This document shows, piece after piece, positions 7,742-62,934 of a stretch of 64,000 nt of DNA. A program made the translations under genes and the position numbers. The stretch comes from an uncultured Candidatus Saccharibacteria bacterium (GTDB taxonomy: Bacteria > Patescibacteriota > Minisyncoccia > Phycocordibacterales > UBA918). Numbering within the stretch: the stretch's first letter is position 1; each line of letters starts with the position of its first letter. The stretch lies in NCBI GenBank assembly GCA_964353135.1, contig CAYGTV010000001.1:309497-373496 (forward strand). The letters run 5' to 3'. The notes below the pieces were generated by a model. The model was not told the origin of the DNA, did no database searches, and was given only the letters and a program-made list of their open reading frames with translations.

Positions 7742-8822
7742 TTGAATCTTCCATATCAGAAATTCTTTGTTCCTGAACTATGTAATGATTATATATCTCG
7801 AGTAACACCAAAAATAGAGTTACTACCACCGGCCCAATCAAAAAGCCGATTGGGCCAAACAATGCTAGTCCACCAAGTACTGAAATCAAGATTATGAATG
7901 GGTGCATATTATTACCCCTGCTCATAAGTTGCGGTCCGATGAAATTATCAACGAGACCGACAGCTAATACGGACCAGATTAGCAGACCTATCGCGGGAAT
8001 AACATTGCCGGTTAAAAAGAGTACAATGACCACCGGAAACATAACTACTCCAGTTCCAAGACCAGGGATCATGGCAGCTATTGCCACAATTCCCCCGATC
8101 AGAACAGCTCGGTCAACTCCTGCGACCGTCATACCAATTGTTGCGAGAACTGCTTGGATTATTGCCACCAGAAGCGTACCTGTAGCAACCGCACGCACCG
8201 CTCTAGCTAGGCGATCGAGGATTTCCTGATCTTCTTCGTCTGGTAGCGGACTAGCCTTAACTACGAGCTTTATCAGCTCTTTACCATCGCGGAAAAAGTA
8301 AAACGAAGCAATTAAAGCAATAAAAAATAGAAAAAACGTTGTAACCGTGCCCGTAAATATCGAGGCAAGATTCCCGGTGAACCATTCAGCACTCAGCTTG
8401 ATCTGATCCTCAACATTAATCTCAAAGCCAGGCACTACACGTTGCACTTGTGACTCAATGCTGTTTGTTACTGTGGTTATTGACAGACCTTCGGGTGAAT
8501 CCATATCCTGATAGAAATCGACAATTTCATTTACAACCAGAGTAGTCATCAAGACAATTGGTAAAATCCCGACCACAAACACAATCGCGGTCGAAAAGAA
8601 CGCCGCCAGAGATGGACTCTGCCTGGGCATGTACGGCACAATTGCTTTATATAGCGGACTAGAGATAGTCACTATCACAGCAGCTAGTGCCAAAGCACTC
8701 AAAAATGGCGACATAATCTGCCACACCATGTAACCTGATAATAAAAGCAGTCCAAAAAAGAAAACGTACTCAACTACTCGACTTAATGACATATAGTAAT
8801 AGTATACACAAAGGCCGCGCAA
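7728..8822 (-). CDS. AI-2E family transporter (UPF0118/PerM-like permease).
   Basis: Multi-TM protein with the family-typical C-terminal region (LIGGIVAIAAMIPGLGTGVVMFPVVIVLFLTG...GLVDNFIGPQLMSRGNNMHPFIILISVLGGLALFGPIGFLIGPVV). The true start may be one of the downstream Mets. Confidence 0.8.
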   Translation of the reverse strand: MRGLCVYYYYMSLSRVVEYVFFFGLLLLSGYMVWQIMSPFLSALALAAVIVTISSPLYKAIVPYMPRQSPSLAAFFSTAIVFVVGILPIVLMTTLVVNEIVDFYQDMDSPEGLSITTVTNSIESQVQRVVPGFEINVEDQIKLSAEWFTGNLASIFTGTVTTFFLFFIALIASFYFFRDGKELIKLVVKASPLPDEEDQEILDRLARAVRAVATGTLLVAIIQAVLATIGMTVAGVDRAVLIGGIVAIAAMIPGLGTGVVMFPVVIVLFLTGNVIPAIGLLIWSVLAVGLVDNFIGPQLMSRGNNMHPFIILISVLGGLALFGPIGFLIGPVVVTLFLVLLEIYNHYIVQEQRISDMEDSNDRS

Positions 8823-8842
8823 ATGCGTGGCCTAGTTTCGGA

Positions 8843-9007
8843 TTAGATGTTTTGCAATTGGATTTGGGATGTGATGGCGGCTGCTTCGATCGTTTTAAAC
8901 GATTGTGCTGCGGCGCTATCTAGTGCTTGAAATGAACTCGTAAAGAATTGCGACAAGCCCCAAAGAACAATTAAAAAACCAATACCTGATCTGATTCCTT
9001 TACGCAT
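8843..9007 (-). CDS. Possible small membrane protein (54 aa) missed by the >=60-aa ORF track.
   Basis: Manual translation from the ATG at 9007..9005: MRKGIRSGIGFLIVLWGLSQFFTSSFQALDSAAAQSFKTIEAAAITSQIQLQNI*, with one predicted TM. It sits in an otherwise empty 300-bp intergenic gap. Confidence 0.3.
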   Translation of the reverse strand: MRKGIRSGIGFLIVLWGLSQFFTSSFQALDSAAAQSFKTIEAAAITSQIQLQNI

Positions 9008-9035
9008 AAATTATTACGTTAATGTCCCGGCTGCT

Positions 9036-9097
9036 TTTCTTATAAAGAAAAGCCATAAAAAAGCACGGAACGTAGGAATCAGACGAATGTTCGTCTG
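9036..9097 (-). promoter_or_regulatory. Two hairpins in the intergenic region downstream of the thioredoxin-like gene.
   Basis: Hairpin 9080-9097: cagacgaa-tg-ttcgtctg. Hairpin 9036-9054: cttttct-tataa-agaaaag. On the minus transcript a U-rich stretch (gugcuuuuuuaug) lies between them. This could be a weak terminator or attenuator before the small ORF. Confidence 0.25.
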
Positions 9098-9128
9098 TAT
9101 ATACAGTAACACAAATTTATTAAACTGT

Positions 9129-9685
9129 CTAATCTACGTTAGACAAAGCTGTGTCGAGCACTTGTGTCAGCTCAGCTGAGGTAATAGCACCACGTTTATG
9201 GTGTATAACATCACCCTTTGTGTCATAGATAACTGTTTCAGGCATTGTGTACCCTTCGATTGCTTTATAGTAACGATCATCCTTATCAACAATCAAAAGG
9301 ACCTCATCTGTGAGACCAAGCGTAGACAAAAATGCCTCTGCTGTTGAACGTGGTTCAGCCCGATTGATGGCTATAACCACGACACCCTTGTCTCGGTAAT
9401 TTTTAGCAACGTTGGTTAATAATTGTAATTCAGAAACACTAGAGGGTGCCCAACTCGCCCAACTGTTAACTATCAGTGTCTGGCCCAGAAATTGTTCAAG
9501 ATCAGCTTCATTACCATCAAAATCTGTAAAATTGGCTGTTGTGGTGCTTGATTTCAATACAGTAGACGCTGGGCTTTGATCTAGACTACGTTCCGCTGAG
9601 CGTTTCTGAACAAGGTGTACCGTAAACGCGGCCACTGCCAGAACTACTACCAAAACAAACAAGGTGACGATTGAACTTTTTTTCA
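9129..9685 (-). CDS. Membrane-anchored TlpA/ResA-like thioredoxin-fold protein lacking the CxxC active site (WASWAPSS instead of WxxWCxPC); no cysteine anywhere in the protein.
   Basis: Start verified at the ATG 9685..9683 (MKKSSIVTLFVLVVVLAVAAF), 2 nt after the upstream gene's stop. The ORF track's 9851 start overlaps that upstream gene. Redoxin-like region: LGQTLIVNSWASWAPSSVSELQLL...GVVVIAINRAEP...TMPETVIYDTKGDVIHHKRGAITSAELTQVL. Confidence 0.75.
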
Positions 9686-9687
9686 TA

Positions 9688-11265
9688 CTAGTTGATTTGA
9701 TCAGTACCAAGATACACAGTGATTGGTGCTTCAGACGCGTCATCAGAAATAAAGGACGACAAGAGAGCATCAGCGAAATATTCTTGCAAACGGACTGCTG
9801 ATTCAGCGTAGCTTGGATTGTAAACAATAACAGTTCGATCCTCACTAACATCAGTGTCCGCGCGGTTCACCTGTACTTTGTATCCCTTACTCTCCAAATC
9901 TTGTGCTCGCAACTCATCAAGACCAGCGATTCCACTACGATTTACAATCGTAATCGCAGGCTGATCAATCACAGCTGTTGAATCTCCTTGCAACGGCGGT
10001 AGGTCGGCTTGATCAGGCAAAGCCACCATCGCTCCGTCTTGTTCGTAGCGCACTTCGTACCCATGCTCACTACTGAGAGCTAGTATCAAGTACCACGCAA
10101 ACAAACCAACAAAGATACATACTGCTAAAAGAACGATTAAAAATAGTCTATATTTCTGCACCAGGGGCAGAATACGCGAAATCAATGAACCTTCACCAGA
10201 GGTTAGTTCTGCTCGCAGATCCAAAATACCTTCTTCCAGAGGAGCGGTTACAGAGATAGTACGTTTTGAGCGATGATTCCCATTGTGTAATTCAGGAGTA
10301 ATTCCTGCCATCTGTAGCATTCTGCGAATATATAACTTAACTCCCCAAATGATAAGCCATAGTAGCCCACCAAAGACGAACATAAATAAGAGCAGCGTGC
10401 GCCAAGGAATAACCCAAAAAGAGGTCTCAGCGGTAACAAATTGTCTTGTTAAGTCACCGTAAGCGAGAGTTACTTCAGCTGTGTAGCGCCCCATATCAGC
10501 AAAAGACCAATCACCGACCCATTCGAAATTATATTTCCGGATACTGTTCGGAAGAACATTTCCGAATTGGGACGTTTGGTTAATTGGAATAGTGCCGCGC
10601 TCTCTACCCCACATATTTTTAATAGTAATATTTCCTTGGGGCTGAACGTGAACATTTCCTGCATTTTCAAACCTGATTGAGAATGCAGCTTTTGGTGATT
10701 CACTAACAAATTGTTCAGTAACGAAGTCACGAATCGAACCTCTTTCAACAATGTCACCGGCCACACTTAGAAACACCAATGCCGTCACAACTTGCGACGT
10801 TTCCACTTGCGCCGGCGTCTCTGAATTAGTTAGAGATCGTGTCCCTACAAGAATCGCTGAAAAATGACCACCTGGCGCCGCATCATCAGGAACATTGATT
10901 GAAAATGGTACCGAAACAGTCTGCTCAGCAGGAATAATAATTTCTTCTGTCGGTAACGTAAACCATTCGGCTAAGGTTGTGCCATTTGATTCAGTCTCTA
11001 AGACCGGAATCATAGTTCCCTGCCCAGACTCACCAGATGGTTCAAAATTGACCGCGTTAACATACACCTTCAAAGGGAATGGGTTGGTGTTGATGACTCG
11101 AACAGCACTAGACCAAGCCTGGCTTTTACTGGCAGACATTTCAAACAAAGTTGGTGATACACTCAGGGCAACCGAACCTTGCGCGACAGCAATAGTCGGA
11201 AACAGCCCAAGTAGTAATACCGCAGCCAGCGAAAGTCTTACTTTATTGAGTGAGGTCAATATCAT
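9688..11265 (-). CDS. Fusion protein: signal peptide + DUF916/DUF3324-like beta-rich surface domain + TM helix (KLYIRR) + second TM + C-terminal LytR_C (LCP C-terminal) domain.
   Basis: ATG verified at 11265..11263 (MILTSLNKVRLSLAAVLLLGLFPTIAVAQG). Family core: FSIRFENAGNVHVQPQGNITIKN...GRYTAEVTLAYGD...FWVIPWRTLLLFMFVFGGLLWLIIWGVKLYIRR. LytR_C-like tail: ITIVNRSGIAGLDELRAQDLESKGYKVQVNRADTDVSEDRTVIVYNPSYAESAVRLQEYFADAL...ITVYLGTDQIN. Overlaps the upstream gene by 23 nt. Confidence 0.7.
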   Translation of the reverse strand: MILTSLNKVRLSLAAVLLLGLFPTIAVAQGSVALSVSPTLFEMSASKSQAWSSAVRVINTNPFPLKVYVNAVNFEPSGESGQGTMIPVLETESNGTTLAEWFTLPTEEIIIPAEQTVSVPFSINVPDDAAPGGHFSAILVGTRSLTNSETPAQVETSQVVTALVFLSVAGDIVERGSIRDFVTEQFVSESPKAAFSIRFENAGNVHVQPQGNITIKNMWGRERGTIPINQTSQFGNVLPNSIRKYNFEWVGDWSFADMGRYTAEVTLAYGDLTRQFVTAETSFWVIPWRTLLLFMFVFGGLLWLIIWGVKLYIRRMLQMAGITPELHNGNHRSKRTISVTAPLEEGILDLRAELTSGEGSLISRILPLVQKYRLFLIVLLAVCIFVGLFAWYLILALSSEHGYEVRYEQDGAMVALPDQADLPPLQGDSTAVIDQPAITIVNRSGIAGLDELRAQDLESKGYKVQVNRADTDVSEDRTVIVYNPSYAESAVRLQEYFADALLSSFISDDASEAPITVYLGTDQIN

Positions 11266-12232
11266 GATCTTTTGGTTGAGGCTTATGGCCATCACGAATA
11301 AACAGCGGCACATCGTCGCCAGCTTCAGCAGATTGAACAAAGGTGCTACCGCGGCGCATGAGTAGAAACACTACTAACAACAGTACTGAGAGTAGTCCAA
11401 TAGCAATATAGAGATAGTACAGTGGGAGCATGTAAAATCCGGCAGAATCAAATAGATTAGCACGTTGGTTTGTGCCGTACACCAGGTTTGCGTTTGCCTT
11501 ATAACGTCCCACACTGGCACCCAGTGGAATGTTTGTTGTATATGTTTTAGTTTCAGAAGGTGCAATGGAAACACCTTCAGTGTTGAACGGTAGAGCTGAA
11601 ACTTCTTGACCACGATTATTATAAAAAATAATTTCGCCCGCGGGGGTAGACTCCAGTTCACCTGAATTTTCCACTGTAATTAGAAGCTGCTGCTGATCAC
11701 TGTTAGTAATAAATCGGTCTACAGTCATACTGCTAATTCGCATACTATCTACTCGCTCATCAGCAACAGTCACAGTAACAATAATCCCATCAGCTGCACC
11801 ACGCAGGGCCATCGCTTCTGCATCTTGACGTTTTTTCACTTCTGAAAATCCTACAAAAGCATGGTATACACCAGGCTCTGCGAAGGGGTGAATTTTGATG
11901 TTTAGGGGCAATTCAACCGTCTCATTGGCAGGCACTTCTATTCGTCCTCGAGTGATCTCTATCCAGCTGGTAATACTGTTGGTGCGATCTGACATTACTG
12001 ACGGAACAAACTCTAGAATCTCACCGGCGGTACCAACCGTGATTTCATTAACAGTAGCATATAAGATTGACGTCCTATCTGGATAGGTACTTTTTAAAAC
12101 TACCGTCTCGTCAGCTGCTTCTCGGGGAACCATCGTAACATCAATCAGGAACGGTCTAATGGTTACCTCGCTTGCTTGTGCAAAAGCGGGTAGAAAGAGT
12201 AACGTAAAAATGAGTGTCGATAGCAACTTCAT
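11243..12232 (-). CDS. DUF916/DUF3324-like surface protein: signal peptide, beta-rich ectodomain, single C-terminal TM helix followed by a basic tail. Paralog of 9688..11265, 27450..28394 and 63371..64000.
   Basis: MKLLSTLIFTLLFLPAFAQA signal. ...ITVENSGELESTPAGEIIFYNNRGQEV...GRYKANANLVYG...LPLYYLYIAIGLLSVLLLVVFLLMRRGS. Confidence 0.7.
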   Translation of the reverse strand: MKLLSTLIFTLLFLPAFAQASEVTIRPFLIDVTMVPREAADETVVLKSTYPDRTSILYATVNEITVGTAGEILEFVPSVMSDRTNSITSWIEITRGRIEVPANETVELPLNIKIHPFAEPGVYHAFVGFSEVKKRQDAEAMALRGAADGIIVTVTVADERVDSMRISSMTVDRFITNSDQQQLLITVENSGELESTPAGEIIFYNNRGQEVSALPFNTEGVSIAPSETKTYTTNIPLGASVGRYKANANLVYGTNQRANLFDSAGFYMLPLYYLYIAIGLLSVLLLVVFLLMRRGSTFVQSAEAGDDVPLFIRDGHKPQPKDHDIDLTQ

Positions 12233-12248
12233 ATAGTAATCATACCAT

Positions 12249-15200
12249 CTAAAAGACCGGTGTAGCGATGTACGTTATGTTGGCAATGTAATCACCTTGC
12301 GCCTGATCTTCGGTGACTTTAATTCTGTATACAACGTCGTGTGCCTCATCTACTGGTATAGAGCTATACATCACTTCTGACACGGTCGTATCAAACGCTG
12401 CATACGTGTCTGTAGCTGCAAACCGAGGTGAACCACCTGCTAACGTAGCGTCTGTCGTATGGTATCCAACGCAACTTGCAGCCAGTGCCGTGCAAACTGT
12501 CGACCAACCTCCTGGCGAGGCATTAGTAGAAGCAATGGGTAAAATTTCTGATCCACCACCGTTTGTCAGCTGCTGTCCAGCTAACTTCCATACCTGATAC
12601 CCTTCAACTGCGTTAGTGTCTACTGACAACCTCTGAGCTGCGATAACATCAGTTCCAAATGGAAGCACACCAAAATCCACTGAGGTAGCCGTGGTTGTGA
12701 CACCAGTTGTAACACCAGCTGTTGATGTGGCGGCTGGTAGACCCTCTATGGTAAATACCAAACGTGCACTTTCGGCGACTGCTGCTGGATAGCTTGCGGT
12801 GCTAAATAAAGCTACCGGCTTAGCAGACGCGACGTCAAACAAGCGGAAGTAATATACTGCACTGGATCGTAGCCTTTGGGACTGAATTGTAAATGAATAC
12901 TCTTGTGCAGCTAGAGCCGGGTGGTCATGACCTGCTACATAGTCAGCAGAGCTATTGTGGGTACCACAACCACCGCCACCAGCAGCCACACAAGTGTCCG
13001 AGATCCCTGTGATTGCTGTGGTAATAGTAGCGTTATTGGCACCACCACCGTCTATGTAGCACCACTCATTACTGATCGTACATGAAGATGAGGCTACAAC
13101 ATCTATCGGATTACTGAATGTAATCTCATCAGAAAACTGTAGTTTGAACTTAACGTTTTCGCCAGTCACACTTTTTTGTTCGTCTAGCACTACTCGTAAT
13201 GCCAATGTGTCTTGTGAGATGATCTCGGTCGGTGCTGAATTGAGCGCTTCTAGGGGTGTAGACGGAGTCTCATTTTGTATATCGTCGTACCATCTCCACC
13301 CAATCACTTCTGGTGTAAAATCAGCGGTGCGAAGTTGCGGGTATTGCAAATAGCCAGACAAAGCGCTACCGTCAGACTCAACAACCCGAAAACAATATAC
13401 GGTGTCTGCGGCGGCGCCATTGTGCTCTAGGTACCAGTCGTACTCAACATCCTCGCCATCAAAGGCAATATAGGTGTTTGTTGCTGACTGGTTTTGATGC
13501 TCGAGTGACCCAGCTACATCAGATACCGAGATCAACAGGTCACCTGGAGTCGGTGGATCACCAGAGAGCACGGTACCGTCAGTCGTACCAGTGGCAGCAT
13601 ACCCTCGCCAGATTTCACCAGATCCAGCCTGACCAACATCAGTCCATGAACCAATGGCTGTACAAGTGCTCACTCGCTCGGCATACTGCAGTTTAAACGC
13701 ATAAAAATCAGCTGGCCAGTTAGCGTTTTTTGCCCGTAGTGTCATTCGTAGACGCAGAATTTCACCTACTCCGGGTGGATCGTCAAACTCAGTGATGGAG
13801 GTGTTCTCTCCTAGATCCTCTAAGCCCGCTGGCCAGGCATCATCTGGAGTTAACTGGTTGTTGCCTGTATAAAACCGATAGTAATTTTGTCGGATCGCTA
13901 AATCAGCAACCGGCCACTGAACAATTTCTGCTCGATACTGCAATTGAGTTCCAGTATCACTTCGCCAAAGTTCGTACCGTAATGGATTAACGATCCGTAG
14001 ACCGGCAATTGCTCGCGGGTGAGCGTTGTTGTTTCCGTTGGCTGATGAGTTTCCAAAAATCGAACTGTTATTGATTGCGTCCAATGCATTGACAATTACC
14101 AAAGAGAGGGTTGTAGGTTCCGCCCCTCCTATAGTAGTTCCATTTTGCCTTTCAACCCGCATCGCACCAGCACCAGCCTGTAAATTTTCGATCACCCACG
14201 CAACAGACGTGTGGACTACTCCCATATTTGCAGCCGCGTTTAACTCAAAAGAAACTGCTCCGATACTTGATAAGTAAACTTGGTGACCAAGGGTAGCCAC
14301 TGTCGTTTGCGCTCCAACTCTTTTTTGAGAATGAATGAATGCCTGATCAAGTGAGGTGACCGGGGTTATAGTTTCGGTCTCTATGACGCCGGCTGCTGTG
14401 TATGTGTGCTCAACTCGTTGAATATTCCAGTTTATACCGGTGTATTCCACTACTGCATAGCTGATATTAATATTTGAACCTCCAGTAGCTTCTCGCGTAA
14501 ATACCGGTCGGTTATTAGCACCATCCCAATCCGCGGTAACTTGAGCCGCATAAAAATCGTTTGCAGCATCGTCTCCGGACACGCCAGTTACAAACACCAC
14601 AACATCGGCATCATCTGTAACTGAAACTGCGGGTCCTGAGATAGTCACTTGTCCAGTATTCATACTCACTGTATTGGCATCTCGAACCAACATTTCATTA
14701 TCTGTGTTTGGTTGGGCTATGAACTCTATAATCTCCCAGTCAACATACGTATCAGCAACAACAGCGTTACGAGCAAAGGTAATGCTGGATACAATATTGT
14801 CAGGATTCTGCACATAAGCAGTCACACCAAGCACGTCCTGGGATCCACCACCGGTAGTATTACCAGCCCCAGTATTGTTGGTATTTGTAATACGAATAAA
14901 CGCCAAACTCGAGGAAGCTGGGGCTGTATAATCCACTCCAGCTGTGATTGTTTGCGTAGTACCAGTTAGGACACTATTACCTTGCTGCACCTTGAAATCT
15001 CGCTTGGCTGCAATGCTAACCTCGGGATACTGATCATACTGATTGATGTCGATTCCTTGTCTTGATAGGCGAAAACAGTACGTAGTATTAAACGCAGACG
15101 CAACGGTAGAGGTGAGGCTAAACTCAAATTCAGCAAATTCTAACTCCGTGATAGTTGTGCTCGCTGTTGCACTACTGGTTTCCCGAATACCACTATTTGG

Positions 15201-18200
15201 ATTTATTAGCGATACATTCTCATCTGCAACTCCACCATCTACCTCTGGTATGTTTGTCACATCAGCACCGTGTACGAGGTTTGTTGAATCGTACATATCC
15301 CACGCATCACCGAGCTCCGCATTGACATCTGTCCACACGGCGATCGCCGAACAGCTTGTCACTCGTTCTGCGTATTCCAAATTAAACACCCGCTCAACTG
15401 ACGTTGTGGCGCCCTCGTTACTTACCTGCATGCGTAACCTGATAGGAGTTGCAATTTGGTGGTCGGGTAAGAGTGTGTCCTGTGAACCTGCAGTTGCAGA
15501 TGTGGCACCAGTTTCTGAACCATCATCGTTACGCCAGTGGTAGTGCGTCTGAGTAAGGATGGCACCCTGCAAGGTTGTGACGCCACCAAGCTCAACCGGT
15601 GTAGATGGTGAAACTGATGCTCCAGGGACAATAACGTCACTATTGGCTGACAGGATTGCGAAGCTCACTGTGTCACCATTTAGCGCCGCATCGGTAACAT
15701 CAGCTACTACATACACACACATGGCTTGGGTGGTTAGAATCGTGACACTACCACTAAACGTAGAGCTACCGTTTATATCGCTCATACCATCTGTATCAGT
15801 ACTACCAAACTGTGGCTCTAGTCCACTGTATGTTTCACTGACACAGTTATACGGAGCTGTAGTATCTAAGTCATACAACAGGCGGATATTAGTTAATCCA
15901 GTAGTTGCATCAATAGACCCAGATTCAGCAATAGTTATATCGGTAACGGTATTGCTAGCTGTGTTTTCTCGAATCACAAATGCCCCACCAAAATATAAAT
16001 CGGCTGAAGGAATATCCACTGTGGCTTGCTGTGTACCAGTCTGAGAGACTGTTACTTCTGCGTTGATTGTGGCTTGTGCATACACATCGTATGCATTAAG
16101 ATCAGCCCCACTATTTGAAAGTCTAAAGCAGTAAGTTGCTCCCTCTGTTGCACTAGTTGAAGCAACCAGCGAAAACTCTAGCTCAAGGAATTCGTTGGTT
16201 GCTAGTGTAATCGACCCTGTAGTGTCAGTTGAGTCTCGCACCCCTGCGTTTGGTGTTTTAAAAACGGCATTTTCATCTGTCACTCCTCCAATTCCGTTAG
16301 CGATGTTAGTTGTGTCAGAACCTTCGGTTAGGTTAACCGTTGGCTGCATGTTGAACTGATCATCGGCAGCTCCGACGGCTGTCCACACCGTCACATCAGT
16401 ACAGGTTGGAGCCGCTTCTGCGAACTCTAGTTGATAGATAATTGGGCTAGAACTGGTTGAACCCTCTACTGAGACACCCATCCTAAGTCTAGTAGTTTGC
16501 CCAATCGGTAACGCTCCACGCGGAGTATCTTGGTTTCCAGCCGTCGCTGAAGTAGCACCAGCTTCTGAACCATCGTCGTTTCGCCAGTGATAGTGAGTTT
16601 GGGTTACGTCGGGACTGATTACAGTGGTCGTGTCAGTCAGGGTAACCGGGAAATTTGGTGCAATGTCAGACCCAGTAACTACCACGTCATTTGGTGGGTC
16701 TGTGATTTCGATTTCGATAGTTTGACCATCCCCTGCACTGCTGGTGATATCGGTCACGACATAGAGACAAATTGCTTGGGTCGGACCGACACCGACTGAA
16801 CTACCAGTAAACAATATCTGACCATCTGCGGCATCAAATCCATCGGTATCGGTGCTGCCAAATTGTGATTCACCACCACTATAGGACTCACTAGCGCAAT
16901 TATATGGTGCAGATGAGTCCAAATCATACAGCAGCCGTACATTAGCAAACGCTGTCGAACCATCAACCGTTCCATTTTCACGTATTGTAATATCTGACAC
17001 AGTGTTTGATGTCAAACTGTTGATCACAAATTGTCCACCAATGTAGTTGTTAGTAGTTTCTGACCTCAGCGTTGCAACCTGAGTACCCAGCGTCGACAGG
17101 TTAGAATCAGGACCAATGTTAGCGAGAGTTTCTCCAAATCTGTCGCTGACAGACCCCTCCCACCAGGCTACATACAAACGGTCATAGTTACTAGGATCCA
17201 ACGCTGGTTTTCTGATGTCACCTGGCGTGGTATTTAACGGACCAGTTTCAGTTCCCCAACTTGTCATAGCATCAGTTGATTCCTTGAAATATATATTTCC
17301 CGTACCGGCAGAACCCGGTGTATCCTGTACTGCGTATGCAACATACACGTCACCATTATTTTGATCAATCGCTATGGCTGTATCTAAAATCCCCCGACCA
17401 GTAATGTTTGTTACGACATCAGTCATAAGCGTCCACACCGAGCCGTCGTAAATCGCTGTTCTGACGTCGTCGTTATTATCAGTCAACAAGTTGTTATCAG
17501 CAACATAGGCAAAGTAGATGTTGTTGGTACTTAGATCAACCGTAGCTGACATAGCACCATCGTATTCACTGTTTTCTGGAGCGTTGTTATCGATGGATGT
17601 CCAGGTACCAGACCAAGTGGAACCATTCCAGACTTTTGAGCGGACTTCATTAGCAGAAATGTCTTGGTTAATCAGTAGCACATTGCCACCAGCTAGCGGC
17701 ATAAGCAGGTTGTGGTCGTTTCGTGCATCCAAGGGTGAGGTTCCCACTTCGATCCAGTTAGTTCCAGTCCCACAGGAAGCAGCGCAAGACACGACGTACG
17801 AATCAGAGTTGTCGTTACTGGTCAGATAAATGTCACCATCGGTCGCTTTTGTGATTGCGTGCGTGTTGATTGCGTCAGTGAATGTTGGAGTTTGTCCCGA
17901 GCTTACGGTCGCATTTACTGGCGAACTACCAAGGAGTAATGTGTCAGTCGACGTATCAAGGGCATTATAAAATAAATCATCATCAGACGTATCCATTGTT
18001 GCGATATGAATTGTGGATCCACTGTCACCAGGGGTCCAACGGTCGTACCACACGACAATGCGGATACAGTCAGTTTGGGCGTCAATAGTAACTGCAGCTG
18101 TCCATGTGCTTCCGGCGTCGGTGGTTTTACTATAAACACACGAGCCAGGACTATCTTGGTAAAAGGTATACCCTACTGTGTCCGAAATAAATACAGTTTG

Positions 18201-18392
18201 CGCACCGGTATGGTTGTTTCCTCGAGCAGACCCGTTTGCTGTACTATCAATCACCACCACGGCAGCATCAGCTATTTGAGGTGAAAATAGTCGGGAAAAA
18301 GTTGTTACCCCAAGTAAATCAAACAACAAAACTATCAGCAGAAAACTACTGAGTAATGTGCGTACATGAGTAAAATTGCGCAGTTGTTTCAT
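12249..18392 (-). CDS. Giant secreted or surface protein (2047 aa). It carries two ~340-aa internal repeat modules containing 'THYHWRNDDGSE.GATSATAG.QDT', and a conserved C-terminal domain ending ...VVYRIKVTEDQAQGDYIANITYIATPVF.
   Basis: 6.1-kb ORF with an N-terminal hydrophobic segment (LLSSFLLIVLLFDLLGVTTF). The C-terminal ~180 aa are homologous to the C-terminus of the 24604..25743 protein. Confidence 0.85.
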   Translation of the reverse strand: MKQLRNFTHVRTLLSSFLLIVLLFDLLGVTTFSRLFSPQIADAAVVVIDSTANGSARGNNHTGAQTVFISDTVGYTFYQDSPGSCVYSKTTDAGSTWTAAVTIDAQTDCIRIVVWYDRWTPGDSGSTIHIATMDTSDDDLFYNALDTSTDTLLLGSSPVNATVSSGQTPTFTDAINTHAITKATDGDIYLTSNDNSDSYVVSCAASCGTGTNWIEVGTSPLDARNDHNLLMPLAGGNVLLINQDISANEVRSKVWNGSTWSGTWTSIDNNAPENSEYDGAMSATVDLSTNNIYFAYVADNNLLTDNNDDVRTAIYDGSVWTLMTDVVTNITGRGILDTAIAIDQNNGDVYVAYAVQDTPGSAGTGNIYFKESTDAMTSWGTETGPLNTTPGDIRKPALDPSNYDRLYVAWWEGSVSDRFGETLANIGPDSNLSTLGTQVATLRSETTNNYIGGQFVINSLTSNTVSDITIRENGTVDGSTAFANVRLLYDLDSSAPYNCASESYSGGESQFGSTDTDGFDAADGQILFTGSSVGVGPTQAICLYVVTDITSSAGDGQTIEIEITDPPNDVVVTGSDIAPNFPVTLTDTTTVISPDVTQTHYHWRNDDGSEAGATSATAGNQDTPRGALPIGQTTRLRMGVSVEGSTSSSPIIYQLEFAEAAPTCTDVTVWTAVGAADDQFNMQPTVNLTEGSDTTNIANGIGGVTDENAVFKTPNAGVRDSTDTTGSITLATNEFLELEFSLVASTSATEGATYCFRLSNSGADLNAYDVYAQATINAEVTVSQTGTQQATVDIPSADLYFGGAFVIRENTASNTVTDITIAESGSIDATTGLTNIRLLYDLDTTAPYNCVSETYSGLEPQFGSTDTDGMSDINGSSTFSGSVTILTTQAMCVYVVADVTDAALNGDTVSFAILSANSDVIVPGASVSPSTPVELGGVTTLQGAILTQTHYHWRNDDGSETGATSATAGSQDTLLPDHQIATPIRLRMQVSNEGATTSVERVFNLEYAERVTSCSAIAVWTDVNAELGDAWDMYDSTNLVHGADVTNIPEVDGGVADENVSLINPNSGIRETSSATASTTITELEFAEFEFSLTSTVASAFNTTYCFRLSRQGIDINQYDQYPEVSIAAKRDFKVQQGNSVLTGTTQTITAGVDYTAPASSSLAFIRITNTNNTGAGNTTGGGSQDVLGVTAYVQNPDNIVSSITFARNAVVADTYVDWEIIEFIAQPNTDNEMLVRDANTVSMNTGQVTISGPAVSVTDDADVVVFVTGVSGDDAANDFYAAQVTADWDGANNRPVFTREATGGSNINISYAVVEYTGINWNIQRVEHTYTAAGVIETETITPVTSLDQAFIHSQKRVGAQTTVATLGHQVYLSSIGAVSFELNAAANMGVVHTSVAWVIENLQAGAGAMRVERQNGTTIGGAEPTTLSLVIVNALDAINNSSIFGNSSANGNNNAHPRAIAGLRIVNPLRYELWRSDTGTQLQYRAEIVQWPVADLAIRQNYYRFYTGNNQLTPDDAWPAGLEDLGENTSITEFDDPPGVGEILRLRMTLRAKNANWPADFYAFKLQYAERVSTCTAIGSWTDVGQAGSGEIWRGYAATGTTDGTVLSGDPPTPGDLLISVSDVAGSLEHQNQSATNTYIAFDGEDVEYDWYLEHNGAAADTVYCFRVVESDGSALSGYLQYPQLRTADFTPEVIGWRWYDDIQNETPSTPLEALNSAPTEIISQDTLALRVVLDEQKSVTGENVKFKLQFSDEITFSNPIDVVASSSCTISNEWCYIDGGGANNATITTAITGISDTCVAAGGGGCGTHNSSADYVAGHDHPALAAQEYSFTIQSQRLRSSAVYYFRLFDVASAKPVALFSTASYPAAVAESARLVFTIEGLPAATSTAGVTTGVTTTATSVDFGVLPFGTDVIAAQRLSVDTNAVEGYQVWKLAGQQLTNGGGSEILPIASTNASPGGWSTVCTALAASCVGYHTTDATLAGGSPRFAATDTYAAFDTTVSEVMYSSIPVDEAHDVVYRIKVTEDQAQGDYIANITYIATPVF
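14950..17050 (-). repeat. Two diverged tandem ~1.05-kb intragenic repeat units inside the 2047-aa gene.
   Basis: Compare gcaccagcttctgaaccatcgtcgtttcgccagtgatagtg (~16557-16597) with gcaccagtttctgaaccatcatcgttacgccagtggtagtg (~15500-15545). Both encode ...DDGSEAGATS/THYHWR in the translation. Confidence 0.5.
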
Positions 18393-18433
18393 AACTCCGG
18401 TCTTCTTATAATACCTTACTCAGTATGGTTGAA

Positions 18434-20032
18434 TCACGAGTCCTGTGTACTGGATGCGGTAGCTTTAGCTGTTGTTTTCTCAAAGGCAGGGATCACAACA
18501 TCTGGTATGGTGGCTTGCTGCACGACGAGGTCCGAAGCAATCGCAACTGGGGTAGAAGTTGGGCGCAAATCGAGGTCTGCACTAACCTCTACTGTAGTGG
18601 TAGATACTACTGGGGTAGAGCTGGCAGTTGGTGTTGGAGGCTCGTCACCAACAGGCTTGGAATCTTGCTGTTCTAGATCGTCCTCATCCTGAAGACTGGT
18701 TGGGAGCGCTCTAGTTTCGCCTGTAGCATCTGGTTTAGGCAGCTCTGTAGGTAGCTCTCTTGGCAAGTGCTCTAGAGGGACAACTTCCCCGGTTATCAAG
18801 TCAAACCCCTTCATGACACTGTCACCATTTTGATACCGCGCTTCATATGTGACTAGCATACGAGGATTAACAACACTCACACCCTCTGTGTCAGCAATCA
18901 GGTTAAAGTTTTCAGTACTTATTTCGTATGTCATCAGAGACTGAGTGCCGTCGTTTGAACGGACATTCCAAATAATCATGTCGCCGTGAATGTGTGGTGC
19001 TATATCATGTTTTTGCGAAGTGGTTAGTTGCATCTCTGTTTCTCCATCAAACAGCACGATCTCCCAGTTATTTGTTACCCAGCGTTGCCAGACAGTATAA
19101 TCACCACTCCTGGTTGGTTCCATATTATTAACACGGGTATTTGTGAGCTGAACCTCCTTTCCTGAGTCGATATCGTACGACATAATCTGGTATCGGTCGT
19201 TGATTAAGCGATGCCAAACTATAGTGTTTGAACGTGAATCAAAGTACGGCGAAGCATCTTCCAACTCGTTGTCTGTAAGTTTTGACTCAACACCATTTTG
19301 AACTACATAGATTTCCATGTCACCGGTACTATCTGGAGCAGCAAATAATGCGTCATCAGGTAGATCATCCAGGTTCATCTTCTGACAATAGAAACTGCCA
19401 TCTGCTACTTCGGTACATTCATTGCGATTAAATGCGATGGCTTGATCAGAGTTCATAACGGTTATCTCTTGGACTACTCCTTGAACGTTAACCTCGTCTG
19501 TAGTGATCCCAGTATTATCAGTAGGCTGTAAATCTGGTTGCGGTTGAGCGTCGTCAGAAGTAGCAGAATTAGAATCAGTTTCAACCCCAGATTCTGTGCT
19601 GTCAACATCGTCTCCTGCCTCACCAGTGCCTGACTGACTAGCGGGCTCTTCTCCTGTTTGGCTGGTAGTTGTTGCAGTCGAAGAACTCACAACCTCACCT
19701 GTTGTAGTCTGCTCATTTTCAAACAGCTCGGTTGTTGTAGCGACCGCAGAAGAGTCGGCTAGATTGCTTTCATCTGTAGTATTTAAAATTTCCTCGGTCT
19801 CTATTGTGGTGTCTGACTGTACGTCTTCTTGAACATCATCAGGAACCTCGACCACCTCATCGTCCGCACTAGTGTTTATGGAGACGACCTCGGTAGTGCT
19901 TGGTACCGTGCTGACAGTTTCAGGTACTGGTTCCTGTGCATAGGCATTTGCAACCGGGTGCATAAGCAAACTGGTGCACAACATGAAAGCAGCGACCAGT
20001 GTCACCCTTGAAGTAAAGGTATATCGATACAT
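18434..20032 (-). CDS. Secreted protein: signal peptide, long acidic T/S/E/D-rich low-complexity stalk, then a beta-propeller-like (PD40/TolB-like) W-containing repeat domain.
   Basis: Signal-peptide-compatible start at the internal ATG 20032..20030 (MYRYTFTSRVTLVAAFMLCTSLLMHPVANAYAQ); the track's ATG at 20149 is an alternative. Repeats: ...TIVWHRLINDRYQIMSYDIDSGKEVQLT / YTVWQRWVTNNWEIVLFDGETEMQLT / MIIWNVRSNDGTQSLMTYEIST. Confidence 0.65.
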   Translation of the reverse strand: MYRYTFTSRVTLVAAFMLCTSLLMHPVANAYAQEPVPETVSTVPSTTEVVSINTSADDEVVEVPDDVQEDVQSDTTIETEEILNTTDESNLADSSAVATTTELFENEQTTTGEVVSSSTATTTSQTGEEPASQSGTGEAGDDVDSTESGVETDSNSATSDDAQPQPDLQPTDNTGITTDEVNVQGVVQEITVMNSDQAIAFNRNECTEVADGSFYCQKMNLDDLPDDALFAAPDSTGDMEIYVVQNGVESKLTDNELEDASPYFDSRSNTIVWHRLINDRYQIMSYDIDSGKEVQLTNTRVNNMEPTRSGDYTVWQRWVTNNWEIVLFDGETEMQLTTSQKHDIAPHIHGDMIIWNVRSNDGTQSLMTYEISTENFNLIADTEGVSVVNPRMLVTYEARYQNGDSVMKGFDLITGEVVPLEHLPRELPTELPKPDATGETRALPTSLQDEDDLEQQDSKPVGDEPPTPTASSTPVVSTTTVEVSADLDLRPTSTPVAIASDLVVQQATIPDVVIPAFEKTTAKATASSTQDS

Positions 20033-20255
20033 CAACGAATTAACATACAGCTCTGAGTCAGAACCCGAGCTATTGCTTGTTGTTTTTGGAGGTCTGTATG
20101 TCGAATATACGTTGTAATATAAGGTTTTTTGAGTGCTTCTACGTTTCATTTGTTGGCTTGACTTCGTTCAGTCAAAAAGCCTGTTATTCCCATCACAATA
20201 TAATTTTATCAATCTTTCAAGAGGTTTGAAGGTGTTATCAACACAAACAAGGGCA

Positions 20256-21011
20256 TTATTGGAGGAAGAAATCTGCCAGAATTATTGAAAAATCTTTAAA
20301 CGTCATGCGTCCGTCATTATCAAAATCGAATAGTTGCGCTTGATTCTGCCAAGCCCCCATAAAAGCACTGATGTCTTGGAGGGTGACTTTTCCATCTTTG
20401 TTTAAGTCAGTAGTAATCCCGCTTGCTATTGCAACCCTAATTTCTTCAGGTGAGGTGTTTTCGTCAAAGTTAAATAGGCTTACTTTGTTTGCATCGTTTG
20501 TTGAAGGGGTAATTTTTTTACCTGTTCCATCACCCGCAACCAAGGTAATATCTTGTGAGCGGATCTCGTACTGTCCGGCTTTGAGAGCTCTAAATTTTAT
20601 AGATGCTACTGGATGCTTTCCTATAAAACCACGACGAAATGTTCCGCCGGTTAATTGTACGTAATCATTGGCAATAATCGGGTCTTCGGTCCATAAGGTT
20701 AGTACTGATGTACCACGGTCAACACTAAACACCTCGACTTTATCAGGTGGAAACACGACTGTAATATCTACAGCATTGACTGGCGCATGTGCCGACACGC
20801 CAACTTGTAGAGTTAAAATTTGACCAACTTCGACCGTGCGCACATCTGGAGTTAGATAAACGTAAGATTTACTTGTACTAGTTATAGTTGTGGCTCCTAA
20901 CAACAATACAGTTCCAAGCACAGCTGGAAACATATATTTAACTGTCGCAGACGACACGCGCTTGCTGCGGTAGACTTTAACTGTAGTAATAATCCAAGTA
21001 AAAGCGCTCAT
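20256..21011 (-). CDS. Small secreted adaptor-like protein with a cohesin-like beta-sandwich domain and a C-terminal dockerin (two Ca-binding-type repeats).
   Basis: Dockerin repeats: DLNKDGKVTLQDISAFMGAW ... FDFDNDGRMTFKDFSIILADFF. Cohesin-like region: TVEVGQILTLQVGVSAHAPVNAVDITVVFPPDKVEVFSVD...IKFRALKAGQYEI. Confidence 0.65.
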   Translation of the reverse strand: MSAFTWIITTVKVYRSKRVSSATVKYMFPAVLGTVLLLGATTITSTSKSYVYLTPDVRTVEVGQILTLQVGVSAHAPVNAVDITVVFPPDKVEVFSVDRGTSVLTLWTEDPIIANDYVQLTGGTFRRGFIGKHPVASIKFRALKAGQYEIRSQDITLVAGDGTGKKITPSTNDANKVSLFNFDENTSPEEIRVAIASGITTDLNKDGKVTLQDISAFMGAWQNQAQLFDFDNDGRMTFKDFSIILADFFLQ

Positions 21012-21014
21012 TGT

Positions 21015-21695
21015 TTACAAAGACGTTACCGTGTTCCTGATTTGCTCTGCCTGTAGACGTGAGAATGCTAGTGCTTCTCGTGTTTCATTCACGTTTGTTA
21101 ATATTGACAAAATTTCTTCTGAACTCGCGGACTTTCCTGCAATAAGAGCGTCGATGATATTCTTTTGTGCTAAGACTAGCTCAGCAAATAATTCACTCTG
21201 TTTTTGCTCTTCGGTCGCTAGTGCTCGCCACTGCTCTACCTTAGCCTTCTCAAACTCATCGCCAGCAGTTAGCGTGTTGAGCAGAGCAACTTGCTCTTCG
21301 TAAGCTTCAATTTCTCGATTAAACCGAGCAGACATGAGCGATTTACGATCTGAATAGAAACTTGCGCATGAACGGAATAGAACATCGAGCTCACGCAGCT
21401 CGGCTTGAGCAAGTCCACTATCAAGACGTCCAAGTAAACTATCAAACCGCATTCGTTCAGACATAGGACAGTCCCTAATAACGGATTCGGTCACACTATC
21501 AGCTCCATTACGTGCGATTGTTTCAGCAATCGTATTTAGAACTGCCTCTTGTTCTGCAACCTGTACCCGTGAAGCGCTTGTAAAAGAATCAACTCGCTCA
21601 GAGGCGATATACATCCCGAGCAAGATAGACAGAATTAGCAGTCCTGCAACAATGATAAAATTTTCACTTTTTTTGAGTACTGGGATATTAGTCAT
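21015..21695 (-). CDS. Hypothetical N-terminally membrane-anchored, mostly alpha-helical protein.
   Basis: 226-aa ORF with an N-terminal TM (FIIVAGLLILSILLGMYIA). Stop and start abut the flanking genes. Confidence 0.55.
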   Translation of the reverse strand: MTNIPVLKKSENFIIVAGLLILSILLGMYIASERVDSFTSASRVQVAEQEAVLNTIAETIARNGADSVTESVIRDCPMSERMRFDSLLGRLDSGLAQAELRELDVLFRSCASFYSDRKSLMSARFNREIEAYEEQVALLNTLTAGDEFEKAKVEQWRALATEEQKQSELFAELVLAQKNIIDALIAGKSASSEEILSILTNVNETREALAFSRLQAEQIRNTVTSL

Positions 21696-21702
21696 AGGTA
21701 TA

Positions 21703-23454
21703 TTAGCTATCTTTGGTTAATGATGTGACGTCTTTGATTTCCTTCTCTACTGCCTTTTGTGAGGCTTCAAGTGAAGCACCAAACACTGCTAGTGTATCAG
21801 CTTCAGCTTTTGTAAGCTTGTTAGTTTTGCGTGATGCCATAAGCAGTGCTCGTTGTTCTGCAACTGTCTGGTGTAGTGAGGTGAATTCACGCTGCAGAAT
21901 AGTCAACGCTTCGTTTGATTCTACTCCTACCACACCTCTAAATCGACGGTATACAAATAGCATGTACCAGACACCAAACACCAACAATAGAGACAACAGT
22001 ATAAGAGGTACGATGACTGACATTGCATTTACAACTTGTGTTCCGATCCTAATGTAGCCAGGTTCTTGGACAGCGATCCGATACACCTCAGATATTTCTG
22101 ATTGGGCTCCAAACTGATCGGTTGCACGCGCTGATAATTCATATACCCCAGTATATAACGACCCATCGGGGATGAAGGTGAACGTTCCAATTTCGTCACT
22201 TACAGTCTCATATACGTTTTGCTCACTACCAACTCGATTAAAGAAAATTTGTACAGCGGAATTTGGTCTAGTTGAACCTGTAATTACTGGTACAACATTT
22301 ACACTCATGTCAGTTGGAACATCCACAAATACTGGTCGTTCAAAGGACTCAATTGTAAATGAGAAGGTCCCAATGACACTATTGCCAGCGCGATCAAATG
22401 CCTCTACGATCACTGTGTGATAGCCAGGTTCAAGAGCCTCGAGTGTATGCGTTGTTGCCCCAGCTTCGGGTACATACTCATAAGGCTCATTGGCATCAAC
22501 CTTGATTAAATACTTTTCGATACCAGAAGTTTCCTCATCAATTTCAAATTGCAGAGTTTTTGCTGGATTTGATGGATCCGAGCTAGTGGCCAAACTTATT
22601 TTAAAGTTTGTCGGCACTAGAGTATCTACCCCCAGTCGATAGTGCTGTACACCACCCCAACCGTCTGAGTTCTGGAATTGTAAATGGAAATACGACACCC
22701 CTTCCTCTAAATCAGCCAGAGTAATAGAGCTGATAGGGTTCTCATAAACGCGTGTTGGTATACTAGAAGGACTGCTGTTTAAAAGCGTACGCACTGAAGT
22801 GACACCAGCTGGCAGCGTCCACGATAGTTCTGCAGTAGTTTGGTTTGACCAACCATCTGGATTTGGGTGGGTTGTTGACTGAATGTTAGGTGTCGCAGGT
22901 GTATTTGCTGACGGCACATACTCTACAATTACTTCAGGTGCTGGAGCCTCTGTTGCCGCACTAACAGTATATGAACCACCATTCATAGAGGTGAGGATGT
23001 TAGTTCCTCTACCGTCATTAGCTAAAACGGAACCATTAGAAAAAGACACTTGTGATGCCCCAGCCCCTTTGGTTCTAAAAGTTACTGTCACAATTCGTCC
23101 AACTGAGCCTGCAAACCCACTTGGTACTCCGCCGCTAAACGTCACAGTTCCAGCTGAATTCGAAAAGGCCGGTTCAGCTGTCCAAAGATTAAAAATTGAG
23201 CTATTTCTATTGACTGCCACTACAGACAGTTGGTTTGGATTGAATTTAAGTGTACCCTCTGCAGCGTTAACCGACTCTCCGTTGGTGCGAATTTGTACAT
23301 CGACAGAAAATGTTGCTCCAGCTTGGTAGACACCAGTGCTTGGCGATACTTGCATGACCGCCGCTTGAGCAAAACCAACAAAGCACATCCACAGCGCTAG
23401 AACAAAAATGGTTTTAAACAATGTTTGTGGAGTAATAAAGCAAGATTTAGTCAT
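21703..23454 (-). CDS. Surface protein: signal peptide, cohesin-like N-terminal domain, Ig-like middle region, C-terminal TM helix and cytoplasmic coiled-coil tail.
   Basis: ATG verified at 23454..23452 (MTKSCFITPQTLFKTIFVLALWMCFVGFAQAA). Cohesin-like: VSPSTGVYQAGATFSVDVQIRTNGESVNAAEGTLKFNPNQLSVVAVNRNSSIFNLWTAEP...TVTFRTKGAGASQVSF. TM: VIVPLILLSLLLVFGVWYMLFVYRRF. Paralog of 58916..60448. Confidence 0.7.
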   Translation of the reverse strand: MTKSCFITPQTLFKTIFVLALWMCFVGFAQAAVMQVSPSTGVYQAGATFSVDVQIRTNGESVNAAEGTLKFNPNQLSVVAVNRNSSIFNLWTAEPAFSNSAGTVTFSGGVPSGFAGSVGRIVTVTFRTKGAGASQVSFSNGSVLANDGRGTNILTSMNGGSYTVSAATEAPAPEVIVEYVPSANTPATPNIQSTTHPNPDGWSNQTTAELSWTLPAGVTSVRTLLNSSPSSIPTRVYENPISSITLADLEEGVSYFHLQFQNSDGWGGVQHYRLGVDTLVPTNFKISLATSSDPSNPAKTLQFEIDEETSGIEKYLIKVDANEPYEYVPEAGATTHTLEALEPGYHTVIVEAFDRAGNSVIGTFSFTIESFERPVFVDVPTDMSVNVVPVITGSTRPNSAVQIFFNRVGSEQNVYETVSDEIGTFTFIPDGSLYTGVYELSARATDQFGAQSEISEVYRIAVQEPGYIRIGTQVVNAMSVIVPLILLSLLLVFGVWYMLFVYRRFRGVVGVESNEALTILQREFTSLHQTVAEQRALLMASRKTNKLTKAEADTLAVFGASLEASQKAVEKEIKDVTSLTKDS

Positions 23455-24499: not shown

Positions 24500-24530
24500 C
24501 CGATTTCAGTTGATACCGACTATATACACA

Positions 24531-24555
24531 AACAAAAAACCCACCTCGTGGTGGG
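24531..24555 (-). terminator. Rho-independent terminator downstream of the 24604..25743 gene.
   Basis: Minus-strand transcript: hairpin CCCACC-ACGA-GGUGGG (24555-24540) followed immediately by UUUUUUGUUUGUGU (24539-24526). Confidence 0.5.
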
Positions 24556-24603
24556 AGATAGGGTCTTTTGTGTTATAACTCCAAGCTTAGAGTCCAGTTT
24601 CGA

Positions 24604-25743: not shown

Positions 25744-25978
25744 ATACTCTACGTTGTATTAGCTTACAGTGCCCTTTAGCGTGGTGTGCCTCAGGGATGC
25801 GCCATATTGCTACAGCACATTGTAGTTGAGTCTCCACACTCTATCTACAAAAGATCTACTGTAAACATACCCGCTCTGACACAGGCGGCTGACCTGTATG
25901 CGTACACAAAAAACTGCGTACACTCGGCAATTACTAACTGAATTACCTCCATTGCGGATACTCTACCATTGTACTCTG

Positions 25979-26001
25979 CTCGGCTAGCCGAGATTTTGTT
26001 T
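25979..26001 (+). promoter_or_regulatory. GC hairpin plus T-run (plus-strand terminator-like) inside a 600-bp non-coding gap.
   Basis: ctcggc-ta-gccgag (25979-25992) followed by attttgttta. There is no plus-strand gene to terminate, so it could end an antisense or small RNA. Confidence 0.25.
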
Positions 26002-26300
26002 ATACACAAAAATAAAATTTTTTACCAAAATACACTCTCGCTACTGTTGAAATTTCCAAACTTTGGGTAGGAACTGGTAACAAGTGCTACAGCTAACCTA
26101 GCAAGTGAGTCACACAAAGCTGAACCTTTTGAGCTAAGTCCCACCTCGCTCTGCTTTCGTTTCGCTACAGATCGGGTGTTCTCACTTTCGTTCGAAACGG
26201 ATAAAACCTAGCGGACATCATCCATTACTTACTCAACCAACATGCCTGAAGTACAAACCTGAGCCCCACCTATTTTCTTGCCTAGACGGCATAGAAAATT

Positions 26301-27446: not shown

Positions 27447-27449
27447 AGA

Positions 27450-33052: not shown

Positions 33053-33053
33053 A

Positions 33054-62885: not shown

Positions 62886-62934
62886 AGCACTATTGTACTG
62901 CACAGTCTGGATGTTTTTTGCTTGATTCCACGGT

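Follow-up and report, generated by a model that had tools for sequence, protein, structure and literature searches.

A Patescibacteria protein family joining a WxLIP-like ectodomain to a LytR_C domain, and its possible role in anchoring a giant surface protein

Very small and for the most part uncultured, Patescibacteria presumably live attached to other cells; a WxLIP-type holder of surface proteins is, as far as we are aware, known only from Bacillota. Here we analyse a 64,000-nucleotide stretch of contig CAYGTV010000001.1 (assembly GCA_964353135.1, deposited as an uncultured Candidatus Saccharibacteria bacterium), hereafter the window, to whose positions all coordinates refer, and within it a gene at 9688..11265 on the minus strand. 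Its product fuses a WxLIP-like ectodomain and a two-helix transmembrane (TM) hairpin to a C-terminal LytR_C domain, and the gene stands last in a cassette of four. The family to which it belongs brings together a WxLIP-type holder, LytR_C and an adjacent giant secreted protein in hundreds of genomes, and may show by what apparatus a major uncultured lineage anchors its giant surface proteins.

The fusion gene is one unbroken open reading frame (ORF) in the ORF list, encoding 525 amino acids (aa) and a stop. The open frame as such runs over 9688..11340, or 550 aa counted from a TTG at 11340, and the start is likely the ATG at 11265, since the resulting 525-aa form is identical in length and sequence to the public protein P0001; this start overlaps the end (11243) of the upstream gene, which encodes a paralog, by 23 nucleotides (nt). 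Relatives with 44-76% identity are colinear with the fusion protein across 94-100% of its length. A sequencing frameshift, named in an initial annotation of this DNA as grounds for giving up the fusion, is excluded because of this colinearity, and the colinear full-length homologs from many independent assemblies likewise rule out that two genes were joined in assembly.

Hydropathy indicates a signal-peptide-like N-terminus and two strong hydrophobic segments, and an AlphaFold2 model built on 59 homologs (mean predicted local distance difference test score, pLDDT, 79) arranges the chain as an N-terminal helix, two beta-sandwiches (residues 34-285), TM1 (288-319), a helical loop, TM2 (373-396), a beta-hairpin, a disordered linker and an alpha/beta domain (438-524). 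This order bears out the initial annotation, which had described a DUF916-like paralog-family ectodomain and two TM helices upstream of LytR_C. Read from the N-terminus, with all features on the minus strand, the protein begins with a predicted signal peptide (11179..11265; MILTSLNKVRLSLAAVLLLGLFPTIAVA followed by QG), to which both the hydrophobic N-terminus and the N-terminal helix of the model point, and which, judging by the residues at the junction, is likely cleaved between AVA and QG. The first immunoglobulin (Ig)-like domain (10756..11178), which resembles the WxLIP PGBD (DUF916), is modelled as a beta-sandwich, is matched by PF06030 in relatives and has WxLIP as its top Foldseek match; it includes a low-confidence loop (10792..10839; residues 143-158 of the 525-aa form, pLDDT 62-66 and below 50 at residues 147-149), which is followed by an invariant VETSQV, T156 and Q158 being invariant in the family alignment. 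Ig-like domain 2 (10405..10755), in the position of the WxLIP HBD/DUF3324, is also a beta-sandwich in the model, is covered together with domain 1 by the Foldseek alignment, and is the most conserved region of the fusion protein.

The two membrane helices, seen both in hydropathy and in the model, are TM helix 1 (10330..10404, running out to in) and TM helix 2 (10078..10149, in to out), and they enclose a cytoplasmic loop (10150..10329) that carries the motif (S/T)APxExGxLDLR at 10210..10260. Four residues of this motif (P342, L348, D349 and L350) are invariant; the motif scores 0.76 for conservation where the entire loop scores 0.54, and it is kept even in orthologs that have no LytR_C. After TM helix 2 come a short external beta-hairpin (ERxYEV..., strands 403-409 and 412-415), just past which the orthologs without LytR_C stop, and a poorly conserved linker (pLDDT below 50 at residues 420-433), together spanning 9958..10077, and then LytR_C (9700..9957). 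The isoelectric points (pI) are 9.7 for the cytoplasmic loop, 4.6 for the ectodomain and 4.2 for LytR_C, and because the loop is basic and the outer parts are acidic, as the positive-inside rule would have it, the charges agree with an out-in-out arrangement, the Ig pair and LytR_C both being predicted to face the wall. The conserved core of the fusion protein, on which the initial annotation made no remark, is the ectodomain and the TM hairpin with its cytoplasmic motif.

The initial annotation had recognised LytR_C at the C-terminus from its sequence pattern, and a Pfam search agrees, PF13399 matching ORF residues 462-547 at 34.8-34.9 bits (gathering cut-off 22.2; E 3.3e-8; profile positions 3-85 of 86). 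The interval then given for this part, 9688..10250, does contain LytR_C, along with the end of the cytoplasmic loop, TM2 and the linker, but LytR_C proper covers only 9700..9957. All 59 aligned relatives match PF13399 too, so that a chance match, with a score above the gathering cut-off, is ruled out. In the model the domain is a beta-alpha-beta-beta-alpha-beta-beta unit after TM2 with pLDDT 80-89, and its location outside the cell is predicted from the charge distribution. Its sole sequence neighbour in the PDB is 2m5y ('Putative tuberculin related peptide'), a weak match (E 0.43), while the Foldseek search with the whole model was dominated by the N-terminal domains rather than by LytR_C, and an NCBIfam search added nothing to the annotation of the fusion protein. 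As had been noted initially, there is no LCP (LytR-CpsA-Psr) catalytic domain: PF03816 matches neither the fusion protein, even at E<=1, nor any of the 59 relatives at E<=0.01. The protein is therefore a member of the LytR_C domain family and not an LCP enzyme, and no phosphotransferase activity can be claimed for it.

LytR_C occurs chiefly in Actinomycetota, where it often follows an LCP domain (PMC11481543), and the statement in the initial annotation that it is normally appended to LCP phosphotransferases went too far, for solo proteins consisting of a TM helix and LytR_C are documented, among them VirR/Rv0431 and Cei/Rv2700 of Mycobacterium tuberculosis and Vnz_18655 of Streptomyces venezuelae (PMC11832169, PMC11481543, PMC7831098). 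Since such solo proteins are known, the missing LCP domain is not anomalous, and what is unusual here is the fusion partner and the phylum. The solo proteins of Actinomycetota (VirR, PDB 2m5y; Cei; Vnz_18655) have the layout of the C-terminal third of the fusion protein, that is, TM2, linker and LytR_C with no LCP domain, but they have only a short cytoplasmic N-terminus where the fusion protein adds a WxLIP-like ectodomain and a second TM helix; the LCP ligases (Lcp1/Rv3267, Corynebacterium glutamicum LcpA, S. venezuelae CglA) share with it only the C-terminal LytR_C and the extracytoplasmic location. Split-GFP assays show VirR in contact with the LytR_C portions of LCP enzymes, and VirR is located at the nascent wall (PMC11832169); C. 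glutamicum LcpA oligomerises and needs its LytR_C, which may drive the oligomerisation, for function (PMC7831098); and LytR_C is weakly similar in structure to the peptidoglycan-binding SPOR domains, a SPOR-like role in binding peptidoglycan having been put forward for it speculatively (bioRxiv 10.1101/2025.11.14.688347). The VirR-type roles in envelope integrity, vesiculation and the MmpL3-TtfA complex concern the mycobacterial envelope and are not transferable to the fusion protein. A wall-binding or self-associating role for LytR_C may reasonably be supposed, and the binding of an envelope polymer or the positioning of a surface complex, as proposed initially, would be plausible.

For the ectodomain, PF06030 (WxLIP_PGBD, formerly DUF916) scores 16.5-17.2 bits on the fusion protein, under its gathering cut-off of 27.3, and matches 50 of the 59 relatives at E<=0.01 (best E 2.3e-9); precomputed matches exist for 12 of the best 120 relatives. 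Foldseek, queried with the model against the PDB, gave as top match the Enterococcus faecium WxLIP 9i1y_A (E 2.4e-11), followed by 9i25_C, a WxLIP bound to a long WxL protein (E 3.9e-11), in alignments of 264-266 columns that span both Ig domains at 17% identity, with a target-normalised TM-score of 0.48-0.51. The next matches were the chaperone-usher chaperones CfaA, CsuC and DraB (E 1e-9 to 1e-7), whose target-normalised TM-scores, 0.51-0.59, lie slightly above those of WxLIP. A sequence search of the PDB with the ectodomain returned no match, and a sequence-level relationship to PapD-like chaperones was not detected; the likeness to the chaperones may reflect only a shared Ig-pair geometry, whereas the profile matches among relatives point to a real kinship with WxLIP at the family level.

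That kinship has limits. Like a Firmicute WxLIP (PF06030, DUF3324 and a TM helix; 9i1y, 9i25), the fusion protein has a signal peptide, two tandem Ig-like sandwiches with a membrane helix after them, a domain 1 with a disordered loop, and gene adjacency to secreted surface proteins presumably held; unlike it, with its single C-terminal TM helix and its host phylum Bacillota, the protein from Patescibacteria has two TM helices, a conserved cytoplasmic loop and an external LytR_C. The N-terminal motif NQIDKxxxYFDLK of WxLIP (PMC10599100) is absent, the mature N-terminus reading QGSVALSVSPTLFEMSASKSQ and the family consensus LSVSPTLFEMSA. Firmicute clusters pair a small WxL, a large WxL and a WxLIP, following a rule of two WxL to one WxLIP (PMC10599100), whereas the cassette described here has two WxLIP-like genes and, in place of WxL (PF13731) neighbours, a single giant protein whose C-terminal domain is of another, pilin/TasA-like type. 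With neither an HBD match nor the N-terminal motif, with no WxL neighbours and with a membrane and C-terminal architecture that differs, the fusion protein is a divergent relative of WxLIP and not a canonical member.

The survey of public genomes showed the fusion to be a large and conserved family. A word-indexed search found 486 relatives, of which the best 120 are nearly all 510-560 aa long and colinear; the few names among these are Candidatus Parcubacteria or Pacebacteria, and one entry is called 'LytR C-terminal domain-containing protein', database records otherwise listing the family as hypothetical. An exhaustive profile search returned 1254 clusters (50% identity) at E<=1e-30, comprising forms of about 540 aa and forms of about 420-470 aa that end after TM2. 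In a species-level genome set, 290 genomes encode a relative, and those with meaningful labels are Patescibacteria of the Parcubacteria group (Nomurabacteria, Kaiserbacteria, Paceibacteria); records labelled 'Saccharibacteria', 'Acidimicrobiales', 'Patiriisocius' or 'Azotimanducaceae' that carry the same cassette are presumably generically named or mis-binned. Large as the family with this architecture is, it is confined to Patescibacteria, and the literature searched contains no description of WxL/WxLIP-like or LytR_C systems in this group.

Eighty species-level loci were fetched and their ORFs scanned with hidden Markov models made from the parts of the family alignment. Ectodomain, TM hairpin and LytR_C are all present at 67 of them, three are cut by contig ends, and ten complete genes gave no LytR_C score at first; one of the ten, L080, carries a diverged copy, which leaves nine without the domain. 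Around the LytR_C-less genes, a search out to 10 kb revealed no LytR_C gene standing on its own. In a neighbour-joining tree of ectodomain and hairpin, rooted on the paralog and without bootstrap support, eight of the LytR_C-less genes form with L080 a single clade nested among LytR_C-bearing lineages, and L036 stands independently. We read this as LytR_C being probably ancestral to the family, secondarily lost and dispensable, and because the orthologs without it keep the cassette, it is accessory rather than essential to that cassette.

The cassette itself lies entirely on the minus strand and consists, in order, of a 571-aa gene (18434..20149), a gene for a giant surface protein of 2047 aa (12249..18392), the gene for the 329-aa paralog (11243..12232) and, last, the fusion gene, with gaps of 41 nt and 16 nt and then the 23-nt overlap. 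Neither the 571-aa nor the giant protein belongs to a Pfam family. Of 59 loci with at least 9.5 kb of upstream DNA, 56 encode a giant ortholog of about 2050 aa and 55 an upstream ortholog of the 571-aa protein, and the ortholog of the 329-aa paralog lies directly upstream of the fusion gene in 77 of the 80 loci. In this paralog a WxLIP-like ectodomain is followed by a single TM helix near the C-terminus and a short tail; it has no LytR_C and matches the fusion protein in BLASTP at E 1e-14 to 1e-17. The gene order is the same in contigs whose fusion ortholog is only 46-56% identical, and the LytR_C-less clade retains the full cassette. A scan of 8700..21900 for promoters and terminators gave counts no higher than in shuffled sequence and is uninformative for the limits of an operon.

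The presumed partner of the fusion protein is the conserved C-terminal domain of the giant protein (12252..12761, minus strand), of about 170 aa and ending in ...DYIANITYIATPVF (in the family, ...DYxxxITYIATPVF), which we regard as a presumed docking domain. Its model, a beta-sandwich, has a pLDDT of 85 overall and above 90 over the domain, and a PDB profile search with it produced only spurious matches to scFv. The same type of domain also closes small proteins of about 380 aa encoded next to other WxLIP-like paralogs. A second, smaller cassette of this kind lies in the window at 23447..28394 (minus strand), with a 350-aa C-terminally anchored protein (23447..24499), a 379-aa protein ending, by alignment, in the giant-type domain (...TYVATPVF; 24604..25743), a Big_6/DUF4215/dockerin protein (26346..27446) and a 314-aa WxLIP-like paralog with a single TM helix (27450..28394). 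At two further loci, L083 (11850..15574 of that locus) and L085 (11795..15543), two proteins of about 380 aa with the giant-type domain and one WxLIP-like protein of 382-404 aa are encoded just downstream of the fusion gene, an arrangement of two small proteins and one holder that echoes the two-WxL-plus-one-WxLIP rule of Firmicute clusters (PMC10599100).

Taken together, we lean, with a good deal of reserve, towards the view that the fusion protein is the membrane anchor subunit of a Patescibacteria-specific surface-display cassette, holding the giant protein and carrying LytR_C as an accessory wall tether. The Ig pair would grip the C-terminal domain of the giant protein as a Firmicute WxLIP grips WxL and as chaperones grip pilins. 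In Firmicute WxLIP an unstructured hairpin loop is predicted to become the strand that completes the WxL beta-sandwich (PMC10599100), and by analogy the disordered loop at residues 143-158 is a candidate for a strand donated to the partner protein, whose sandwich it would complete. The giant protein would thereby be held on the cell, possibly together with the 329-aa paralog; LytR_C, on the same outer face, would give a second attachment, either to peptidoglycan in the manner of SPOR domains or to other LytR_C domains, and this contact would fix, position or stabilise the complex in the wall, while the cytoplasmic loop motif would bind some partner.

Several observations weigh against a role as anchor with a LytR_C tether. 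Nine complete orthologs among the 80 loci end about 30 residues after TM2 and yet retain the whole cassette; the biochemical function of LytR_C is unknown and no ligand of it is known (PMC11481543); and the essential function of M. smegmatis MSMEG0834 does not depend on its LytR_C (bioRxiv 10.1101/2025.11.14.688347). Neither a pure anchor model nor any of the explanations considered accounts for the conserved cytoplasmic motif. On the side of the ectodomain, the HBD/DUF3324 model matches neither the fusion protein nor any of the 59 relatives. The motifs NAxEGYQV and TYxATPxF had led us to suspect that the C-terminal domain of the giant protein is a WxL domain, and this found no support, PF13731 giving no match at E<=5-10 in the window proteins or in 23 proteins that carry the domain; the WxL chain of 9i25 is likewise absent among the 50 Foldseek hits shown for this domain. 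What Foldseek returned instead was weak (E ~1e-3, TM-score 0.3-0.5) and consistently of another kind, namely the TasA fibre and pilins of the chaperone-usher class (CfaB, FimA, CsuA/B and the pilin domain of PapG).

Pilins and TasA are the client class of the very chaperones that the ectodomain resembles, and the models are in this respect suggestive of a pair in which the holder looks like chaperones and WxLIP and the held domain like their clients. A bolder and more doubtful form of the anchor reading, which we entertain only tentatively, is that of a hitherto undescribed display system spanning the phylum Patescibacteria (class Paceibacteria), in which Ig pairs resembling chaperones and anchored in the membrane would hold giant adhesins by donor-strand complementation of a pilin/TasA-like C-terminal domain, forming an evolutionary bridge between the chaperone-usher pili of Gram-negative bacteria and the WxL/WxLIP system of Firmicutes, and LytR_C would be a SPOR-like peptidoglycan tether. 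The two-domain Ig-like fold, the pilin-like client domain and the proposed strand complementation are indeed common to the fusion protein and to chaperone-usher chaperones (CfaA, CsuC, PapD/DraB), but the latter are soluble, periplasmic and served by an outer-membrane usher, whereas the fusion protein is membrane-anchored in a monoderm-type envelope.

The same likeness can be turned into an explanation that we judge unlikely, in which the protein is a membrane-tethered chaperone of folding and assembly: the WxLIP-like pair would transiently cap the pilin-like domains of the giant protein and of the small proteins that share this domain as they leave the Sec channel and hand them on for strand-exchange polymerisation or wall insertion, with LytR_C placing the machine at sites of wall growth. 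CfaA, CsuC and DraB do match the ectodomain almost as well as WxLIP, with slightly higher TM-scores, the best matches of the client domain (CfaB, FimA, CsuA/B, TasA) are polymerising subunits, small proteins with the same C-terminal domain exist, and VirR is found at the nascent cell wall (PMC11832169). Against these stand the weakness of the client-domain fold matches, a homology in sequence that at the family level leads to WxLIP and not to PapD-like chaperones, and the composition of the cassette, in which no usher-like protein or other assembly platform was identified and where one client of about 2050 aa suits display better than a polymer.

Two further explanations we regard as improbable. 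According to one, LytR_C would act as an adaptor and, by way of contacts between LytR_C domains, bring in an LCP-LytR_C ligase encoded elsewhere, whereupon a glycopolymer or the giant protein would be covalently joined to peptidoglycan; the split-GFP interactions of VirR, itself a solo LytR_C protein, with the LytR_C portions of LCP enzymes (PMC11832169) and the oligomerisation of C. glutamicum LcpA, whose function requires its LytR_C (PMC7831098), would suit such a scheme, but no other LytR_C-bearing ORF lies within 10 kb at any of 86 related loci, no LCP domain occurs among the 23 window ORFs scanned, and orthologs devoid of LytR_C keep the cassette. According to the other, which has equally little in its favour overall, the protein would be a device for transmembrane coupling or signalling, whose loop motif APxExGxLDLR binds a cytoplasmic partner and reports on or controls the external complex, LytR_C then acting as a sensor of the wall. 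This would agree with the loop motif, which has four invariant residues and equals the ectodomain in conservation, and with the retention of hairpin and loop in the clade that has lost LytR_C, but the loop has only about 60 residues and no recognisable signalling domain, no regulator is consistently adjacent to the cassette, and the two-TM hairpin of a third paralog in the window has a much shorter, unrelated loop. That the fusion is an artefact, be it a chance Pfam match or two genes fused by an assembly or frameshift error, has a negligible probability, given the complete architecture at 67 of the 80 species-level loci, the PF13399 matches above the gathering cut-off and in 59/59 relatives, and more than 100 full-length colinear homologs from independent assemblies.

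If the anchor reading is true, it names three parts of a conserved attachment apparatus, namely its docking domain, its holder and its wall tether, and the clade without LytR_C, set beside relatives that keep it, is a natural experiment on the role of that domain. Were LytR_C to act as a peptidoglycan tether, this would be its first defined ligand outside Actinomycetota, and were the wider display system to hold, symbiotic ultra-small bacteria would gain a defined host-attachment apparatus. Should the anchor reading prove wrong, the proteins would still constitute a well-defined family, annotated as hypothetical, widespread and of clear topology.

The surroundings of the cassette are rich in other genes for membrane and surface proteins. 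One base after the stop of the fusion gene is the likely ATG (9686) of a membrane-anchored Redoxin/AhpC-TSA (TlpA-like) gene (9129..9686, minus strand; Pfam PF08534, PF00578), and a Redoxin/TlpA-like ortholog of 184-188 aa is conserved a few genes downstream in the six loci L001-L006. Cysteines are conserved (C...GC.GYHT) in the alignment of the domain that ends the giant protein, and it is conceivable that the Redoxin/TlpA-like protein handles disulfides of surface proteins. The third paralog mentioned above is a WxLIP-like protein at 63371..64000 (minus strand) that runs off the right end of the window and shares 38% identity with residues 222-342 of the 550-aa ORF. Its Ig domain 2 and TM1 lead into a short loop rich in Arg (KIYIRRTL...RRLNRRRQ), and the chain stops after a second TM helix; the same genome therefore encodes a paralog with a two-TM hairpin and no LytR_C.

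Farther off, a single ORF of 8058 aa occupies 24 kb at 34656..58832 (minus strand) and is followed by genes for a protein like fn3/purple-acid-phosphatase-N (33054..34652), an ABC ATPase (31730..33103) and an FtsX/MacB-type permease (30514..31728). Secreted proteins with cohesin and/or dockerin/EF-hand together with bacterial Ig domains are encoded, also on the minus strand, at 20256..21011, 21703..23481, 26346..27446 and 60993..62996, which suggests that a cohesin-dockerin layer forms part of this surface assembly. Upstream of the cassette, a pair of proteins of 226 aa and about 250 aa is found again in L001, L003 and L005, with a weak or faint dockerin/EF-hand match only in the L001 and L005 copies.

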